Assembly (NCBI RefSeq): GCF_056712565.1
Contig: NZ_CM160072.1
Reading direction: 5' to 3' (one strand)
Length of the DNA stretch: 64,000 bases
The position numbers were made by a program, and so were the translations under genes. The notes beneath the pieces were generated by a model. The model was not told the DNA's origin. It saw only the letters and a program-made list of their open reading frames with translations, and did not search any database. Positions 8,562-53,540 of this stretch are shown here, in pieces. Position 1 is the first letter of the stretch, and each line of letters begins with the position of its first letter.

Positions 8562-8924
8562 GGGGCTGATTCTGGATTCGACGGGATTTGCGAAACCCAA
8601 GGTGCATGCCGAGGGGCGGTTGGCCTCGTAAAAAGCCGCAAAAAATAGTCGCAAACGACGAAAACTACGCTTTAGCAGCTTAATAACCTGCTTAGAGCCC
8701 TCTCTCCCTAGCCTCCGCTCTTAGGACGGGGATCAAGAGAGGTCAAACCCAAAAGAGATCGCGTGGAAGCCCTGCCTGGGGTTGAAGCGTTAAAACTTAA
8801 TCAGGCTAGTTTGTTAGTGGCGTGTCCGTCCGCAGCTGGCAAGCGAATGTAAAGACTGACTAAGCATGTAGTACCGAGGATGTAGGAATTTCGGACGCGG
8901 GTTCAACTCCCGCCAGCTCCACCA
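8562..8924 (+). ncRNA. ssrA: tmRNA (SsrA, 10Sa RNA)
   Basis: Begins GGGGCTGATTCTGGATTCGACGGGATTTGCGAAACCCAAGGTGCATGCC, contains tag-peptide coding region, ends ...GGTTCAACTCCCGCCAGCTCCACCA; 363 nt. Confidence 0.95.
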
Positions 8925-9085
8925 ATCATGATTGGACGGTGTAAGGACAACACCAACAAAAACAGGAAGTTAGAAGTCTCAGCAGGACACCGACCAGACG
9001 GTGAGGAGACATAAAAGGATACGCAAAGGAGCCGCGGCTCCGAAGTGAAATGAAAGCCCGCTGATGCGGGCTTTTTTGCTTCTTC
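8898..9085 (+). repeat. attL: ssrA 3' core (cgggttcaactcccgccagc) plus ~170 bp similar to the attR copy
   Basis: Near-identical to 53357..53540 by direct comparison, including the terminator hairpin aaagcccgctgatgcgggctttttt. Confidence 0.7.
9055..9077 (+). terminator. Rho-independent terminator downstream of ssrA
   Basis: agcccgctgatgcgggct hairpin followed by TTTTTT. Confidence 0.6.
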
Positions 9086-35768: not shown

Positions 35769-35870
35769 TTAAAGTGGGATCTAACTCTAATAATTTAAAA
35801 AATTTAATTGGGTCTTGATATTAATCACATAGACTCAATGCTCTTTAGTTCTTACATAGGTGGTTGTATT

Positions 35871-36311
35871 ATGAGTATCCCCAGTTTAGATGTTCATAAA
35901 GTTGTTAAGTGCGCAGAGCATAAAAAGGCTTTAGATGCAATATCTCTCAAACTTAAGAATAACATTATTGACTCAAGCTCTGAATACGATTTTCTTGGCG
36001 ACACAATAATTTTCAATAAAGATAAAAAAAATAGGTTAACCCTCAAACTTTCAACATATGAACTAGAACTTATTTTCAAAGAAACACTGCTAGTCATTGA
36101 TGAAGCTCCTGTATTGAAGTTTGCTGCCATTGACCCAACCGATGAAAATAACAACGAGCTGATTGATTTATTTTTATCCAAAGGTGGATTTATTTATATT
36201 AGAGAATACAAATCCGAGCCACATTATGAGTATGGCGACACTTCTCTATTTTTACATATACTTGACGCTACTCTTAAAGAGCTTAAATCTGCAAACAAAA
36301 TATCCTATTAA
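35871..36311 (+). CDS. Hypothetical protein (AT-rich moron)
   Basis: ORF on the opposite strand to the flanking structural genes; start taken at MSIPSLDVH; strongly AT-rich. Confidence 0.45.
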   Translation: MSIPSLDVHKVVKCAEHKKALDAISLKLKNNIIDSSSEYDFLGDTIIFNKDKKNRLTLKLSTYELELIFKETLLVIDEAPVLKFAAIDPTDENNNELIDLFLSKGGFIYIREYKSEPHYEYGDTSLFLHILDATLKELKSANKISY

Positions 36312-38093: not shown

Positions 38094-38429
38094 TTATTTT
38101 ACATCCCAAGGTAGTTCCTCAAGAGAGAAGACTAATTCATTATCAATAATTTCGTATTCTGCATAACCTTCAACCTCTCCTGAGAAGTTATTGTCAACGC
38201 ATCCTTCATAATAGCTATATGGTGCTATAAAGTGAAACCCATATTCATCTATCTCTGTGATTTCAAAATTGTAGTAATCGTAAGAATATCGAATATCATC
38301 ATCAGAAATAGAACTAAGTACATAGTTATTAAATTTATCGGAATGCTTAACGATAAGTTCTGACAACGCGTCAAGATTCTCTGGAGAGATATTTCCTAAC
38401 GGTAATCTGTACTCAACGGCATTAATCAT
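38094..38429 (-). CDS. Highly acidic, Tyr-rich hypothetical protein (111 aa), first gene of the late transcript
   Basis: About 24 Asp/Glu versus 5 Lys/Arg; lies between the tR'-like terminator and the holin. Confidence 0.45.
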   Translation of the reverse strand: MINAVEYRLPLGNISPENLDALSELIVKHSDKFNNYVLSSISDDDIRYSYDYYNFEITEIDEYGFHFIAPYSYYEGCVDNNFSGEVEGYAEYEIIDNELVFSLEELPWDVK

Positions 38430-46096: not shown

Positions 46097-46609
46097 TTAC
46101 TCAGATTTGAACTTTGGTTCTGGCAAAAGAGGAGGAGTTGAGTCCTCGAATCGTAGCCAGTGCTCCCAGATATCGTGGGATTGTAATTCCAGAAGACCAA
46201 TTTGACGTGATGCAACTGCAGTGCCAGCTATAGTTCCTCCTGCATAATCAACCTGGACGGACTTTGACGCTTTCTCAATTAATTCTGTCCAAGCTTCACT
46301 TTCCGCGTTAAAAGAAGCAGTTAATTCCTGCAGACGCTGTGGATCATCCTTGTTGTCTTGTTTCAAACGATTCAGGGCGGCCACCGAATACTTATTCTTA
46401 ACCCAACTAACCTGAGCTAACTGAACTCTCTGACAAGCGTCCATATCAGTAGTTGTTTCCTGAGGCATATCAAAGCAGGAAATAAAAAAAGTCTCAACAC
46501 CATCATTTAGACTACTGCTCGGCTGGTTCAAAGCATCAGAAGCATTGGATGCTATCGGTATTATCAGTGCTACCGACAGAATCAAACGTTTAACATAAAT
46601 CGCTCCCAT
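46097..46609 (-). CDS. Secreted hypothetical protein (signal peptide), moron
   Basis: 170 aa; N-terminal KRLILSVALIIPIASNA signal peptide; opposite strand to flanking early genes. Confidence 0.5.
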   Translation of the reverse strand: MGAIYVKRLILSVALIIPIASNASDALNQPSSSLNDGVETFFISCFDMPQETTTDMDACQRVQLAQVSWVKNKYSVAALNRLKQDNKDDPQRLQELTASFNAESEAWTELIEKASKSVQVDYAGGTIAGTAVASRQIGLLELQSHDIWEHWLRFEDSTPPLLPEPKFKSE

Positions 46610-48457: not shown

Positions 48458-48982
48458 ATGTCATTTATTAAAACTTTTTCCGGGAAGCATTTTTATTATG
48501 ACAGGATAAATAAAGACGACATCGTTATTAACGATATCGCGGTTTCTCTTTCAAATATCTGTCGCTTTGCAGGACATCTTTCACATTTCTACAGCGTCGC
48601 CCAACATGCGGTGCTTTGCAGCCAACTGGTACCGCAGGAATTTGCTTTTGAAGCGTTAATGCATGATGCAACAGAAGCGTATTGCCAGGACATCCCGGCG
48701 CCACTGAAACGCCTTCTTCCTGACTATAAACGGATGGAAGAAAAAATAGACGCCGTAATCCGTGAGAAATACGGGTTACCCCCGGTTATGAGTACGCCCG
48801 TGAAATATGCCGATCTCATCATGCTGGCAACCGAACGCCGCGATCTCGGGCTTGATGATGGCTCTTTCTGGCCCGTACTGGAAGGTATCCCGGCAACAGA
48901 GATGTTCAAAGTTATTCCACTGTCGCCAGGCCATACCTATGGGATGTTTATGGAACGCTTTAAAGAGTTAACTGAGTCGTAA
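48458..48982 (+). CDS. YfdR-like HD-domain phosphohydrolase (5'-deoxynucleotidase-like)
   Basis: HxxxxxxH...HD-like motifs (FAGHLSHFYSVAQHAV ... MHDATEAY). Confidence 0.6.
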   Translation: MSFIKTFSGKHFYYDRINKDDIVINDIAVSLSNICRFAGHLSHFYSVAQHAVLCSQLVPQEFAFEALMHDATEAYCQDIPAPLKRLLPDYKRMEEKIDAVIREKYGLPPVMSTPVKYADLIMLATERRDLGLDDGSFWPVLEGIPATEMFKVIPLSPGHTYGMFMERFKELTES

Positions 48983-49090
48983 AAATCAGCACGTACGAAT
49001 TCAAACTCTGCCATAAAAGAACATATAAGTAATTTATTAACATATAGATATAGGTTATATTACAAATTGAAAAATTATTGGAGAGCAACA

Positions 49091-49957
49091 ATGAATCAAA
49101 ATCCATTCTCATTCTATGACTTTCTTGGATATTTAATACCAGGTGGTTTTTTTATCCTATTAATGTATTTCTGTGGTTTGACATTCGATCTAGATATTGT
49201 TATTGACTTAAGTGAATTGCTCAGAGGTCAAAGTCAAATCTTTGGCATTTTGAACTACGCTTCAATAGTTATTATATCTTATATAGCTGGACATTTTATT
49301 TCTATCACGTCAGCATTTTTTATCGAAAAATACATGAATAAAGAATTAGGATATCCTTCCAAATATCTATTTAAAAAATTGATAGATACCTCAGAAAGCA
49401 TTTGTAGCCCATCATGCGATGAGAGAAGCGCTGATAAAAAAACAAAAATAAAGAATCGCATAATCAAATGCGTATTATGTCCAATAATACTATGGGATTT
49501 TATAACACAAAAACTATGTTATTCTCAATCTCTACCATTTCATTTAGCTAATACAACATGGTTAATGATCAAAGAAGGTTATGAGAAAAAGTTCATAACA
49601 AATCGCCAATTATTACAAGATAAAAACGGACTTGATGATGATCTCTTCAGATTGGCATATCATTATGTTTATGAGTTTTCAAAACAACATCAAACAAAAA
49701 TTCAAAACTATGTTGCATTATATGGTTTTTGCAGAAACATATGTTTAATCTTTATAATTTCATTTTGGGTATCAGTTCCAACCTTTATTTATCGATTATG
49801 TACTCATAGTGATTATCTTTATAGTTTACTTTCAATAATGCTTAGCTTTTTCTTCGTCTATGTTTTCTATGTTGGTTTTGTTAAATTTTATAGAAGATAT
49901 ACTTTAGAAGTATTAATGGCATTTGCTGTACTTCAAAGTAACGACACTATTCGTTAA
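49091..49957 (+). CDS. AT-rich multi-TM membrane protein of unknown function, next to xis; candidate exclusion/abortive-infection gene
   Basis: 288 aa from MNQNPFSFYD with GGAGAG RBS; hydrophobic helices at both ends; markedly AT-rich versus flanks. Confidence 0.5.
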   Translation: MNQNPFSFYDFLGYLIPGGFFILLMYFCGLTFDLDIVIDLSELLRGQSQIFGILNYASIVIISYIAGHFISITSAFFIEKYMNKELGYPSKYLFKKLIDTSESICSPSCDERSADKKTKIKNRIIKCVLCPIILWDFITQKLCYSQSLPFHLANTTWLMIKEGYEKKFITNRQLLQDKNGLDDDLFRLAYHYVYEFSKQHQTKIQNYVALYGFCRNICLIFIISFWVSVPTFIYRLCTHSDYLYSLLSIMLSFFFVYVFYVGFVKFYRRYTLEVLMAFAVLQSNDTIR

Positions 49958-49998
49958 TAATGTTGCTCCCGTGTGCAGACGGGATAATGGAGAAACGT

Positions 49999-50205
49999 AT
50001 GCTGAACCTCGATTGTGTTCCTATCTCAACTTATTGCAAAGAAACTGGCGAAACTCCTGAAGCAATAAACAAACGTGTACAGCGCGGTGTTTGGCGTGAA
50101 GGTGTTCAGGTTTTAAAGGTTGAAGGCGTTAAGGAGAGGTGGATTGATCTTAGTGAGGTTGCAAAATGGGCCAGACAAAACTGCTCAAACTACCGCGCGG
50201 CGTAA
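49999..50205 (+). CDS. Excisionase (Xis-like DNA-binding protein)
   Basis: Small basic protein immediately upstream of and overlapping the integrase; start at MLNLDC with GGAG RBS. Confidence 0.5.
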   Translation: MLNLDCVPISTYCKETGETPEAINKRVQRGVWREGVQVLKVEGVKERWIDLSEVAKWARQNCSNYRAA

Positions 50206-51338
50206 CAATCAGGAAACACCACCAGGGAGAAACGATCAATATAACTTTCACCTACAAAGGAGTTAGATGTCGTGAGCCGCTTTCCAATCTGGAAGTAACA
50301 CCAAAGAACATTAAATACGCCGAGCGTACACTCGGCGAAATCCATAATAAGATCGAAAGGGGAACATTCATTTATGCAGAATATTTTCCCCGTTCTGCTC
50401 GTTTGAAAATTTTTGGTAATGCTGCTGCAAGCAAAACGGTAAAGATGTACCTGGACGAATATCTTGAAATCTGCGAAACAAGAAAACTTTCACCCTCTAC
50501 GATTGGTGGCTATAAAAAATGCCGTAGTGCGTTAGCCTCACTTCACATTTGCCCTGCAAGTGAATTAACACCAGCAACCCTGAAAGCGTGGATTCAAAGC
50601 CAGAAAACAACCTTAAAAACCATTCGCAACCAGTTATCTTTCCTACGGTCAGCACTTGATGAAGCCGTGACCGATGGGGTACTTCAAATTAACCCCGTAT
50701 CGTTAGTAACAGCTTCGCGCTACCAAAGTGATAAGTCAGAAGCAGAAAGCAGCTATGTGGTTGATCCGCTATCACCAGCAGAAGTTGATGCATTACTAGC
50801 AGCAGCCGGAAACAAACAATGGGAAAATCTGTTCCGGTTCGCCATACATACAGGCCTGCGTAGTTCTGAATTATGTGCCCTACGATGGCATGATATCGAC
50901 TTTGTTGGAAAAACAGCCCATGTTCAGAGCGCAAGTGTTGTCGGAGTTATCAAAGGAACAAAGACAAAAGCCGGTACCCGTAAAGTTGAACTGACTGAAG
51001 AAGCAATGTTGGCGTTGATAAACCAGAAGCCATTTACATTCATGAAGGATGCTACTGTCTTTGAAGATCCAAAGACCAATAAACCCTGGGCAAGTGCTGA
51101 TGCAATTAGGAAAAAAGCATGGGTGCCAACATTGCGAAAAGCAGGTATTCGTTACAGAAACCCATATCAAACCAGGCATACATTCGCCACCAGCCATATC
51201 AGCCGGGGAGCAAACCTGTTTTGGCTTGCGGCTCAAATGGGCCATAAAGGGCCTGAAATGTTATTCAGGCACTATGGACAATACTTGAAAGAGTATGATG
51301 GGAGGGCAAGTATCAAGGATAAAAAGGCTTTATTTTAA
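50166..51338 (+). CDS. Tyrosine-type phage integrase
   Basis: 390 aa; C-terminal R...HTFATSH...GHKGPEMLFRHYGQY gives the R-H-R-Y catalytic signature. Confidence 0.85.
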   Translation: MGQTKLLKLPRGVTIRKHHQGETINITFTYKGVRCREPLSNLEVTPKNIKYAERTLGEIHNKIERGTFIYAEYFPRSARLKIFGNAAASKTVKMYLDEYLEICETRKLSPSTIGGYKKCRSALASLHICPASELTPATLKAWIQSQKTTLKTIRNQLSFLRSALDEAVTDGVLQINPVSLVTASRYQSDKSEAESSYVVDPLSPAEVDALLAAAGNKQWENLFRFAIHTGLRSSELCALRWHDIDFVGKTAHVQSASVVGVIKGTKTKAGTRKVELTEEAMLALINQKPFTFMKDATVFEDPKTNKPWASADAIRKKAWVPTLRKAGIRYRNPYQTRHTFATSHISRGANLFWLAAQMGHKGPEMLFRHYGQYLKEYDGRASIKDKKALF

Positions 51339-51947
51339 GTCATTATGCCAATCGTCTACTGTTTGAAACCAAATTTTTAACCTTTGCATAAAGGTACGAT
51401 CCTTTTTGGGAGGGTGGTACCTTTGAAAAGAAGTATGTAACGCTTCGATAACTCCCATACAAGCATCAATTACTTCTTGTGCTTTAACCGGGCGATCGGC
51501 ATCTGAAAGCTTGTGAGCGACCTCACAATCCAGAGTTGCTTTCTCTAGTACAGATGAGAACACCTCGTCAGGTATATACAGTCCTCTGCTTTCCAAAATG
51601 CAAATCAGTTTGGAAACTTGTTGAGCTTTAGCCAAGATAGTTAACAAGTATGAAACAGAAGCCTTTGTTCTATCCTTTTGCAACCTTAACAATCGATGCT
51701 TTGATGCTCTAATTTTAGGTTGAGTTGTCTGACTGAGCCAATAGTTAGAAGAAATATCAGAAATTTCAATAACTAACTTTGAAATAGCATCAATAATTGA
51801 TTTCGATTCAGAACGTGTCGCCAGTTTTACAGAATTATTGTACGCAACTCGCCATCCAATGAAAACTAAGCAGACGCTAACTACTGTGATACACCACGAA
51901 TACTGTCCTATTTGTGCTACTAATGACATTGGTTCCGTACTGATCAA
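51330..51947 (-). CDS. Single-TM hypothetical protein; third gene of candidate defence operon
   Basis: 205 aa with N-terminal TM helix (YSWCITVVSVCLVFIGW); 10 bp downstream of the STAS-like gene. Confidence 0.5.
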   Translation of the reverse strand: MISTEPMSLVAQIGQYSWCITVVSVCLVFIGWRVAYNNSVKLATRSESKSIIDAISKLVIEISDISSNYWLSQTTQPKIRASKHRLLRLQKDRTKASVSYLLTILAKAQQVSKLICILESRGLYIPDEVFSSVLEKATLDCEVAHKLSDADRPVKAQEVIDACMGVIEALHTSFQRYHPPKKDRTFMQRLKIWFQTVDDWHNDLK

Positions 51948-51957
51948 CTATCGCCTC

Positions 51958-52284
51958 TTATACTCTTTCTGGTTGTGCTAAATCAATAAATTTATCAATC
52001 TGTTCTTTGTAGAACGGAACATCACTTTTTATAATCAAACGTGCTTTAACGTTGGCTTTAGGTATCCCTTCCTTACGGATGAGACCTCCAAACGCCTCTT
52101 CTAAGAAAGAGGAACCAACACCCAGTGCTATACCGCGAAAATCAACCACAATCTCCTGTTCAGTACCCTTCAGCGCAGGCACCAAAAACTCTCTACGAAA
52201 TCTTTCCGCACTGTGTGGGCTATCCGTTGTGTAACGTCCGAAAGGTGTTCTGGAGAACTCCTTCGCTATGACGATATTTCTCAT
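51958..52284 (-). CDS. STAS-like (DUF4325-like) protein; second gene of candidate defence operon
   Basis: 108 aa with VVDFRGIALGVGSSFLEEAFGGL, matching the DUF4325 core motif as I recall it. Confidence 0.5.
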   Translation of the reverse strand: MRNIVIAKEFSRTPFGRYTTDSPHSAERFRREFLVPALKGTEQEIVVDFRGIALGVGSSFLEEAFGGLIRKEGIPKANVKARLIIKSDVPFYKEQIDKFIDLAQPERV

Positions 52285-52288
52285 AAAA

Positions 52289-53200
52289 TCATCTCCTGGG
52301 AACCAGCGACCATTGTAGTAAAGTACCCGGTATGTACTCAGCTAGCTTCTCACATCGAGGACTACTGTCATTAGAATTATAGCTATAACGAGCCCTTCCT
52401 ATTAGTATCAGAAGTGTCTCATTATCCTCACAACCTGCCCCAATAGGTCTCTTGATATCTTCAGAGCCATTTCCCCGTCCGGAACCAACAAAGCGGGATT
52501 CCCCTACTAACATAGCTCTTTCCACAGAAGATACTTCGTTTTGAATGCTATGACCATCACCATTAGGCACGAAACTTCTATAAATCCCCAATCCAAGGTC
52601 ACAAACGATAAAAACGACTTTATTTTCATCACGATTGAACCAAGCGCACTGCCACCATCGTTTACCTTTGAGAAGCTGAATATCTGACTCGAACCCCTCA
52701 TCTTCATACGCATGATGAGAAACATTGAGCAAAGCTTCACTAATCGCTGTCAGCAGTAAGCCTAACTGTTCATTATTAAGCAGAGCACTTTTCTGCAGCA
52801 TGAGTACTGTTTCAACAATATGCTCGTAAGGTTCGACAGCTGACTGAAAGTATCGTTCCTCCCTCGTAAGTGCATTCAGTTTCTCTTCTGTGCCAGCAAG
52901 CAAAGCACGAGCAAGTCCAGTACCAACGATCCATCTATGCCCAGATGGGTTATCATCCTTTTTAGGCCATTTAAAACGTATAAAATTAGGGTCCCGGGTT
53001 AAAAATTGAGCTCTATTTACTATGGCAAAGAACAGTACCGATGCCGCAGCTGAGGCAAATTTTACCTTGGACAAATCAACTATAACTCGACCTTTATTTT
53101 TTACTCCAATCGATTCAATCGAGTTGATGAAGTTCAATGTCCCAGCCCTAGAATCATCTGAGTAAATGCAAAATTTGCTTGGGGGTACCAGTATGGTCAT
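52289..53200 (-). CDS. GHKL-type ATPase (histidine kinase/anti-sigma kinase-like fold); first gene of candidate defence operon
   Basis: N-box EALLNVSHHAY, G1 box CDLGLG, G2-like GSGRGNG; 303 aa; AT-rich. Confidence 0.6.
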   Translation of the reverse strand: MTILVPPSKFCIYSDDSRAGTLNFINSIESIGVKNKGRVIVDLSKVKFASAAASVLFFAIVNRAQFLTRDPNFIRFKWPKKDDNPSGHRWIVGTGLARALLAGTEEKLNALTREERYFQSAVEPYEHIVETVLMLQKSALLNNEQLGLLLTAISEALLNVSHHAYEDEGFESDIQLLKGKRWWQCAWFNRDENKVVFIVCDLGLGIYRSFVPNGDGHSIQNEVSSVERAMLVGESRFVGSGRGNGSEDIKRPIGAGCEDNETLLILIGRARYSYNSNDSSPRCEKLAEYIPGTLLQWSLVPRR

Positions 53201-53356: not shown

Positions 53357-53540
53357 CGGGTTCAACTCCCGCCAGCCAATCATGATTGGACGGTGTAAGG
53401 ACTACACCAACAAAAACAGGAAGTTATAAGTCTCAGCAGGACACCGACCAGACGGTGAGGAGACAAAAAAGGATACGCAACGGAGTCGCGACTCCCTATG
53501 ACATTAAAGCCCGCTGATGCGGGCTTTTTTATTGGTCCTG
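53357..53540 (+). repeat. attR: second copy of the ssrA 3' core plus ~170 bp flanking sequence, with terminator
   Basis: cgggttcaactcccgccagc followed by sequence ~90% identical to 8918-9085 (5-bp tccac indel) and hairpin aaagcccgctgatgcgggctttttt. Confidence 0.7.

Follow-up and report, generated by a model that had tools for sequence, protein, structure and literature searches.

What use does a temperate phage have for a strongly AT-rich gene that encodes a membrane protein and is placed between its early genes and the genes for excision and integration? The question was raised by a 64,000-nucleotide stretch of the contig NZ_CM160072.1 (RefSeq assembly GCF_056712565.1), referred to here as the window, which matches Escherichia coli phylogroup B2 genomes such as UTI89, S88, APEC O1, and CFT073. 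The gene in question starts at position 49091 and its product, WP_001075212.1, is annotated in the databases as a hypothetical protein. A preliminary description made from the letters of the window had pointed to the high AT content of the gene, to hydrophobic helices at both ends of its product, and to a position in which genes for superinfection exclusion or abortive infection are common in lambdoid phages, and it had recognized no family. The analysis reported here firmly showed that the gene is a mobile, selected, single-gene cargo (moron) for a four-helix inner-membrane protein. As for the likely function, the genomic context suggests that the protein acts at the inner membrane to shield the lysogen from other phages, an explanation that we favor and put forward tentatively.

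A selected gene in an exchangeable cassette

The reading frame begins with the ATG at 49091 and ends with a stop codon at 49955-49957, directly followed by a second TAA. A ribosome-binding site, GGAGAG, was found at 49080-49085, 5 nt ahead of the ATG. The G+C content (GC) of the gene is 28.4%, and that of its third codon positions (GC3) is 21.5%. By comparison, GC is 44-46% in yfdQ, yfdR, xis, and int and 50% over the window as a whole. No other 867-nt stretch of the 64 kb is as poor in GC (z = -3.5). The AT-richness in comparison with the neighbors that had been reported before was therefore confirmed, and so was the placement between the early genes and xis-int, with yfdR upstream and xis-int downstream. 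Comparison with enterobacterial variants (E. coli, Salmonella) that are 78-85% identical gave ratios of nonsynonymous to synonymous substitution rates (dN/dS) of 0.16-0.22, which indicate purifying selection. One copy per genome was present in 204 of 5426 complete E. coli genomes, and the gene was full length and intact in all 204. These dN/dS values, together with the existence of full-length homologues across many phyla, rule out a chance open reading frame (ORF).

The mobility of the gene was evident from the comparison with a sister prophage present in E. coli 1802D011 (locus L162), in which the yfdR and xis-int flanks are 97-98% identical to those of the window. Homology between the two prophages ends at position 48977 and restarts at position 49968, with sharp junctions. 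In place of the 990-bp cassette located between these positions, the slot of the sister prophage has 610 bp with 46% GC, filled by two small genes of normal GC that code for a 120-aa (aa, amino acids) 'phage protein' and a 71-aa protein (L162 1986-2560). Since a sister prophage with the same flanks holds other genes in the slot, the gene is a swapped cargo cassette, and cargo is exchanged at the yfdR-to-xis slot. The DNA of sequenced phages matches up to the 3' end of yfdR and no further. Morons, or cargo cassettes, are told from other phage genes by a composition unlike that of their surroundings, by their replacement between collinear phages, and by a promoter and a terminator of their own; the first two were found here. 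The gene, yfdR, and xis-int are all on one strand. The cassette also includes an AT-rich leader, which is kept in the 85% and 78% identical variants. The promoter candidate in this leader (TTATTA, 16 nt, TATATT) has 8 of 12 consensus matches and is weak.

A widespread family with remote similarity to Csx27

An alignment of 113 family sequences (A1) was the basis for the conservation values, motifs, and profile-match counts presented below. Pfam had no match for the window protein at an expectation value (E) ≤ 1 and none that recurred among the 113 relatives, so the earlier remark that no family was recognized holds for Pfam. It does not hold for PHROGs, PADLOC, and NCBIfam: the window protein is in phrog_12528, which carries no known function, and the other two collections contain Csx27 models that match the family. 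An exhaustive HMMER search (E ≤ 1e-3) produced 659 clusters at 50% identity, nearly all of them full length with 270-300 aa. A genome scan found the family in Gamma- and Betaproteobacteria, in many Bacteroidota, and in Firmicutes, Verrucomicrobia, Chloroflexi, Acidobacteria, and Myxococcota. The GC of the family gene was lower than that of its 5-kb flanks by over 3 points at 59 of 68 genomic loci and at all 56 of the 56 viral loci.

Csx27 is a membrane protein that accompanies type VI-B1 CRISPR-Cas systems as an accessory (Smargon 2017; family analysis in Makarova 2019). The PADLOC Csx27 model, a profile with 206 positions, matched aa 6-268 of the window protein with an E of 1.4e-5, and 77 of the 113 family members matched the same model (best E 2.2e-10). 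A further 22 of the 113 matched tm_4, the second PADLOC model associated with type VI-B systems. Csx27 was also the sole recurrent NCBIfam family, with matches to 21 of the 113 members (best E 2e-6) and no more than 2 members for any other family. All family matches to this curated model were far under its cut-off; NF040557, the NCBIfam Csx27 equivalog with a cut-off of 65 bits, gave the window protein 14.9 bits (E 0.02), and the match was limited to the N-terminal 39 residues. No Cas13b-like ORF or CRISPR array was found next to the gene in the window or in 72-76 genomic loci. Because the scores are below the cut-off, the protein is about 85 residues longer, and CRISPR and Cas13b are not nearby, it was considered a remote relative and not a Csx27. 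As judged by its sequence, then, the protein belongs to a large, widespread family that is remotely related to Csx27, and the hidden Markov model (HMM) matches make this relationship recognizable at the superfamily level. The family itself had already been catalogued (PHROG 12528; Rousset 2022, Table S5B); the Csx27 link had not been drawn before in the literature searched. Literature searches on the accession, on DUF4760 function, and on 'Csx27-like' found nothing functional, and Makarova 2019 and Brenes & Laub 2025 may describe the family.

Another related group comes from the supplement of Rousset 2022: a short family with four transmembrane helices (4TM) and about 160 aa per protein. When its alignment (A3) was compared with A1, hhalign gave a probability of 81% and an E of 1.3e-5 over 69 columns. 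SSYNIFNxLFPG in the short family corresponds to FSxYDFLGYxxPG in the window family, YYFVGxxxSRxGSxxxE corresponds to SYxxGHxxSxxSSxxxE, and both families are cargo of mobile elements. The short proteins differ in having a short linker between the second and third transmembrane (TM) helices, and only the N-terminal half aligns significantly. Furthermore, a gene for an MBL-fold (Lactamase_B) protein always precedes the short 4TM gene. A search with a short 4TM protein returned no protein named Csx27. The module of MBL-fold (~359 aa) and short 4TM (~160 aa) genes is system #34 of the P2 gpA-gpQ hotspot in Table S5B of Rousset 2022, and it was also found as cargo of Bacteroidota conjugative transposons (Porphyromonas gulae, L166-L169). 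The NCBI name of the short 4TM protein, 'phosphohistidine phosphatase', looks like a misnomer.

Predicted topology and conserved residues

Kyte-Doolittle analysis identified four hydrophobic helices, the approximate limits of which are those of TM1 to TM4 in Table 1, with a K/R-rich middle between the two pairs. The density of K+R per residue in the 113 homologues was 0.15-0.16 in the middle and the C-terminal tail as compared with 0.08 in loops 1 and 3. As these residues are twice as dense in the middle and the C-terminal tail, the predicted topology is N-in/C-in with a cytoplasmic middle domain. An AlphaFold2 model of the window protein, built on the 113-homologue alignment, was all-helical, with long helices at residues 8-31, 52-86, 198-237, and 243-287, and was confident (mean predicted local distance difference test score, pLDDT, 90.5; predicted template modeling score, pTM, 0.89). 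The hydropathy profile bore out the hydrophobic ends and soluble middle that had been described from the letters, and the topology and structure prediction proposed at that time resolved them into four TM helices with both termini inside. Foldseek comparison of the model produced no significant match (best E 0.42 in PDB and 0.55 in BFVD), and a sequence search of PDB with the family profile found nothing at E ≤ 1.

The most conserved segment of the family is the N-terminal signature, with a mean top-residue column frequency of 0.79. The Csx27 model and the short 4TM family both align to this stretch. For TM3, the segment leading into it, and the segment that follows TM2, the values are 0.51-0.57, and the lowest values, 0.11-0.17, are those of the periplasmic loops. 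A polar stripe runs on TM2 (Y64, G67, H68, S74, S75, and E79), and the motif at and after this helix is SYxxGHxxSxxSSxxIExY..GYPS. The conserved parts of the cytoplasmic domain are GYPS (aa 87-90), P131, and FRxxYHYxxE...H..K (aa 186-203), and residues 99-128 are variable. The last of these parts belongs to a motif that runs into TM3, FRxxYHYxxE...H..KxQNYVALYGFxR; TM3 opens with NYVALYGFxR, in which R215 is invariant. K265, in TM4, is also invariant, and the motif KFYRRxxxE is found after that helix. The conserved polar residues D10, Y14, H68, S74, E79, H191, H200, N206, R215, and K265 are all on the predicted inner-leaflet or cytoplasmic face. When alignment and topology are considered together, they look like a predicted pocket and not like a pore lined over its full length.

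Genomic contexts of the relatives

Relatives of the gene were found in cargo slots of four kinds of temperate phages, which, together with the exchangeable slot, substantiated what had been said earlier about its position. Approximately 33 of 59 viral loci from IMG/VR showed the order family gene, xis-like ORF of 69-88 aa, integrase. The viral loci had at least six integrase types downstream and varied genes upstream. A variant with 78% identity was found in a cryptic prophage, next to a gene with a Panacea domain. P2-like prophages very commonly carry a homologue with 42% identity, located between gpA and the portal gene (the gpA-gpQ hotspot); it has entries in over 15,000 blocks of the assembly collection. 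This homologue sits 40 nt after a gene for a DUF4760 protein with one TM helix; DUF4760 was confined to the P2-like subset and absent from the window and all other loci examined. In Table S5B of Rousset 2022 (PMC9122126), the pair (DUF4760 and 4TM) is listed as system #3 and occurs 1102 times. The same study assigns old and tin to this hotspot and validates several systems from it (PMC9122126). The validation applies to the hotspot of the P2-like homologue; the window gene itself occupies a different, lambdoid slot.

Other relatives were found in diverse surroundings. In the nin region of a lambdoid prophage, a relative adjoins the gene for a 363-aa nuclease (L157 9917-11008), the N-terminus of which matches PDC-M68A, Shedu, and CBASS effector models. 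In a Mu-like prophage of Photobacterium marinum, a relative is inside the head module, beside a Ser/Thr kinase that matches PD-T4-6 (E 3e-32) and a PP2C phosphatase (L165 7565-9125). One relative was located in a Vibrio-type island with SIR2 and AAA_23/MC2/CTD6 and another one in an islet between toxin-antitoxin pairs; others were alone among housekeeping genes. The SIR2 island, the toxin-antitoxin islet, and the cargo beside the nin-region and Mu-like relatives have a clearly defense-related character. Clustering of the neighbors in search of a conserved partner showed no family in more than 6 of the 72 genomic loci. The exception was an operon in Bacteroidales, in which a 92-aa protein, a PIN_8 protein (~323 aa), and then the 4TM protein are encoded by overlapping or abutting ORFs. 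This operon was found at L066, L075, L078, L087, L091, and L092 (Bacteroidales and one metagenome-assembled genome of Bacilli), often beside glycosyltransferase genes.

Features of the window

The features of the gene, its cassette, and the prophage are collected in Table 1. The sequence CCAATCATGATTGGACGGTGTAAGGAC, an exact 27-bp repeat, is present in two copies, which are likely the attachment (att) sites of a prophage of ~44.5 kb with ssrA as its integration site. If the right-hand copy is attR, as is likely, the gene is ~3.4 kb inside the right end of the prophage. The integrase gene is at the prophage end distant from ssrA, which is unusual among ssrA-integrating phages.

Table 1. Coordinates of the gene, the segments of its product, the cassette, and the prophage landmarks in the window.
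Feature	Coordinates	Strand	Description
Coding sequence	49091..49957	+	288-aa predicted inner-membrane protein; WP_001075212.1; PHROG 12528; remote Csx27 relative by HMM matches
N-terminal signature QNPFSxYDFLGYxxPG	49097..49144 (aa 3-18)	+	F6, Y14, and G18 invariant in A1
TM1, periplasmic loop, TM2	49124..49324	+	Predicted; TM1 aa 12-32, variable acidic loop aa 33-49, TM2 aa 50-78
Cytoplasmic helical domain	49325..49705 (aa 79-205)	+	Predicted; ~125 aa, between TM2 and TM3
TM3, periplasmic loop, TM4	49706..49888	+	Predicted; TM3 aa 206-233, short variable loop, TM4 aa 244-266
AT-rich leader	48983..49090	+	108 nt; GGAGAG; weak sigma-70-like promoter candidate
Exchanged cassette	48978..49967		990 bp, ~28-30% GC; last codons of yfdR, 108-nt leader, gene, 10 nt downstream
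yfdR (upstream flank)	48458..48982	+	HD-family 5'-deoxynucleotidase; last conserved early gene ahead of the slot
xis-like gene (downstream flank)	49999-50205	+	
Tyrosine integrase gene (downstream flank)	50166-51338	+	
ssrA (transfer-messenger RNA, tmRNA, gene)	8562-8924		Identified by tmRNA gene detection
Likely attL	8922..8948		3' end of ssrA; 27-bp exact direct repeat with 53376-53402
Likely attR	53376..53402		27-bp exact direct repeat with 8922-8948

Some other regions of the prophage drew attention. Between int and the likely attR there is a three-gene cargo module on the minus strand (51330-53200), with 36-43% GC, which resembles a partner-switching module. The product of one gene, of 303 aa, matches HATPase_c_2 weakly (RsbW/SpoIIAB-like kinase); that of another, of 108 aa, is a STAS-like member of DUF4325 (E 6e-14); and the remaining one, of 205 aa, has a TM helix at its N-terminus and matches no family. 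PADLOC had no matches among the genes that flank the 49091-49957 gene or among the three genes after int. Two low-GC spots (33-36% over 867 nt), at 35808-36311 (plus strand) and 38094-38429 (minus strand), contain ORFs of 167 aa and 111 aa near HNH endonuclease and lysis genes, and these ORFs may be further morons. On the minus strand at 46097-46609, an ORF of 170 aa that has a signal-like sequence at its N-terminus and weakly matches LprI (lysozyme inhibitor) is inserted in opposite orientation between the repressor gene ymfK and yfdP and looks like an accessory gene.

Discussion

The gene sits in slots where temperate phages carry anti-phage genes, and for this reason its product is a good candidate for a novel phage-exclusion protein. 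The gene, acquired horizontally, is exchanged as a self-contained cassette of ~1 kb of the lambdoid prophage at ssrA. In the mechanism that we propose, the conserved, charged, cytoplasm-facing pocket, which would be made up of the N-terminal motif, the halves of TM2 and TM3 in the inner leaflet, and the stretches that lead into TM3 and follow TM4, may sense or bind a cue derived from the infection. The protein would then compromise the function of the membrane, with abortive infection or growth arrest as the outcome; RexB and Csx28 are known single-membrane-protein effectors of this type. The role against phages, the nature of the trigger, and the effect on the membrane are what we infer, and a cytoplasm-triggered, self-sufficient mechanism was favored over one that recognizes a particular receptor or a periplasmic component of the phage because the periplasmic loops are variable, the phylogenetic spread is broad, and there is no partner. 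As read from the alignment, such a pattern of conservation would be expected more of a membrane effector triggered from the cytoplasm than of a classical injection blocker that faces the periplasm.

A number of observations weigh against protection of the lysogen by such an effector. A strict scan for consensus promoters upstream of the gene and a scan for terminators downstream found no convincing site, and DNA this AT-rich is often silenced by H-NS in E. coli. Within the helices, conservation is limited to the half in the inner leaflet; this is what one would expect of a binding or catalytic pocket more than of a pore running their full length. About 12 of the 132 immediate neighbors at the 72 loci were PIN_8 proteins, restriction-modification components, or integrases, a raw count; the immediate neighbors were heterogeneous and in the main not defense genes, and they included many housekeeping enzymes as well as glycosyltransferases. 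No PADLOC model of a validated defense protein matched the 113 members; the only models that did were Csx27 and tm_4. The DUF4760 pair was catalogued but is not among the systems that were tested, and DUF4760 is absent from the main text of Rousset 2022 (PMC9122126). Csx27 itself represses, and does not enhance, interference by Cas13b, even heterologous Cas13b, by up to 1e5-fold (bioRxiv 10.1101/092577). Finally, no experimental report of phage resistance or any other phenotype was found in the literature for any family member.

A more ambitious version of this explanation, possible but rather unlikely in our estimation, is that the family constitutes a novel class of membrane immune effectors that act on their own and have a new fold. 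The pocket formed by D10, Y14, H68, E79, H191, H200, N206, R215, and K265 would then be a putative ligand-binding or catalytic site, and the same module would exist in reduced form in Csx27 and the short 4TM proteins. If this were true, the mechanism in E. coli would explain the long-puzzling role of Csx27 in type VI-B CRISPR, and prophage biology would gain a very common single-gene defense.

Of the other explanations, the one that survives best is superinfection exclusion, which we nevertheless regard as unlikely. The inner-membrane protein would block or divert the incoming phage DNA and leave the cell unharmed, or it would act as a platform at the injection site. T4 Imm, P22 SieA, and HK97 gp15 are exclusion proteins of the inner-membrane type, and the location of the window protein and the prophage cargo slots that its family occupies agree with such a role. 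Exclusion is also compatible with the prediction that the Csx27 family forms single-stranded DNA channels (Makarova 2019, as cited in PMC7642515 and PMC11662929), with the ability of the membrane-bound defense protein SNIPE to act during injection (PMC13190303), and with the operons in which the related short 4TM proteins are combined with an MBL-fold hydrolase. However, no part of the protein is less conserved than the periplasmic loops, which are short, the conserved site is predicted to face the cytoplasm, and a distribution in both Gram-negative and Gram-positive phyla makes it less likely that a specific receptor or tape-measure protein is recognized. Pfam showed no match to the SieB or Imm families, and no nuclease domain was detectable. 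Membership in the classical exclusion families (SieA/SieB, Imm, Sp, Cor, Llp) was considered and rejected: there was no Pfam match at E ≤ 1, none was recurrent among the 113 relatives, and there was no fold match in PDB or BFVD.

It is less probable still that the protein takes part in an envelope-related conversion, acting on surface polysaccharides or lipid-linked intermediates at the inner leaflet, or that it is an orphan immunity protein against a membrane-targeting toxin. Any benefit would be indirect, through the masking of receptors, or the function would be unrelated to phages. The enterobacterial serotype-converting genes (gtr, oac) are AT-rich membrane-protein genes near int/att, as is the gene in the window, and several Bacteroidota homologues, including that of L066, are beside glycosyltransferase, Polysacc_synt_3, LicD, or WecG genes. 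In addition, the invariant D, H, E, R, and K residues in the predicted inner-leaflet pocket resemble a catalytic or ligand site. Yet the family has no similarity to transferase, flippase, or immunity families in Pfam and NCBIfam, there is no conserved GtrB, GtrC, or toxin partner, and the polysaccharide-related neighbors are few and limited to Bacteroidota. The recurrent similarity to Csx27 and the location in the P2 defense hotspot point elsewhere.

A role in counter-defense, in which the protein would restrain an immune effector of the host or of the prophage so that the lysogen or the induced phage survives, was judged improbable. It would agree with the repression of Cas13b by Csx27, which is the only relative tested experimentally (bioRxiv 10.1101/092577). 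The gene has the direction of the early leftward operon and is located just before xis-int, and it could be co-transcribed upon induction. On the other hand, no cas13b gene or CRISPR array was found near the 72-76 loci, there is no conserved partner effector, and E. coli is not known to have type VI systems. Relatives that exist as lone genes in non-phage chromosomal islets are also hard to reconcile with phage counter-defense. That the gene is a silenced passenger with no current function in E. coli is very improbable: its extreme AT-richness, the lack of a strong promoter, and its annotation as merely hypothetical would be in agreement, but the dN/dS values of 0.16-0.22, the intact state in all 204 carrier genomes, and the strong conservation of the motifs across phyla speak against it.

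If the protein does protect lysogens, as we favor, it would be a very widespread single-gene membrane defense, carried by lambdoid, P2-like, and Mu-like prophages and by chromosomal islets across phyla. If it is not a defense protein, its gene is still among the commonest cargo genes of temperate E. coli phages that await an explanation. Because the gene is short and both its native host and the phages of interest are standard in the laboratory, the hypothesis is directly testable, and the confidently predicted fold is one with no solved relative.

Comparison with known systems places these results in perspective. The order TM1-TM2, large cytoplasmic domain, TM3-TM4, cytoplasmic tail is shared with MotA, PomA, and ExbB, which were the top, non-significant Foldseek matches; with E ≥ 0.4, a template modeling score (TM-score) of ~0.2, and no MotB/ExbD-like partner, this likeness was not taken as evidence of homology. 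Lambda RexB and Csx28 are, like the window protein, small helical inner-membrane proteins borne by prophages or defense loci, and these two act on membrane potential. RexB, moreover, has four TM helices and is expressed from a prophage. However, no sequence or fold similarity between them and the window protein was detected. RexB needs RexA and Csx28 needs Cas13b, whereas the window family has no conserved partner, and conservation in the latter is restricted to the cytoplasmic half of the bundle. Within the cargo of the P2 old/tin hotspot, the 42% identical homologue, with its 1102 occurrences, is the third most frequent; it follows a DUF4760 gene, unlike the window gene, which does not have that partner.

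The closest comparison is with Csx27. Both proteins have four predicted TM helices, the N-terminal signature and the TM1-TM2 module are in register from the N-terminus, and there is no solved structure for either family. They differ in length, ~201 aa in Csx27 and 288 aa in the window protein, which adds the ~125-aa cytoplasmic domain between TM2 and TM3, and in distribution, since the window family is found also in prophages of Proteobacteria and not only in Bacteroidota. If the protein does protect lysogens, it would also provide, in E. coli, an experimentally tractable entry to the mechanism of the Csx27 superfamily, which has been sought since 2017.

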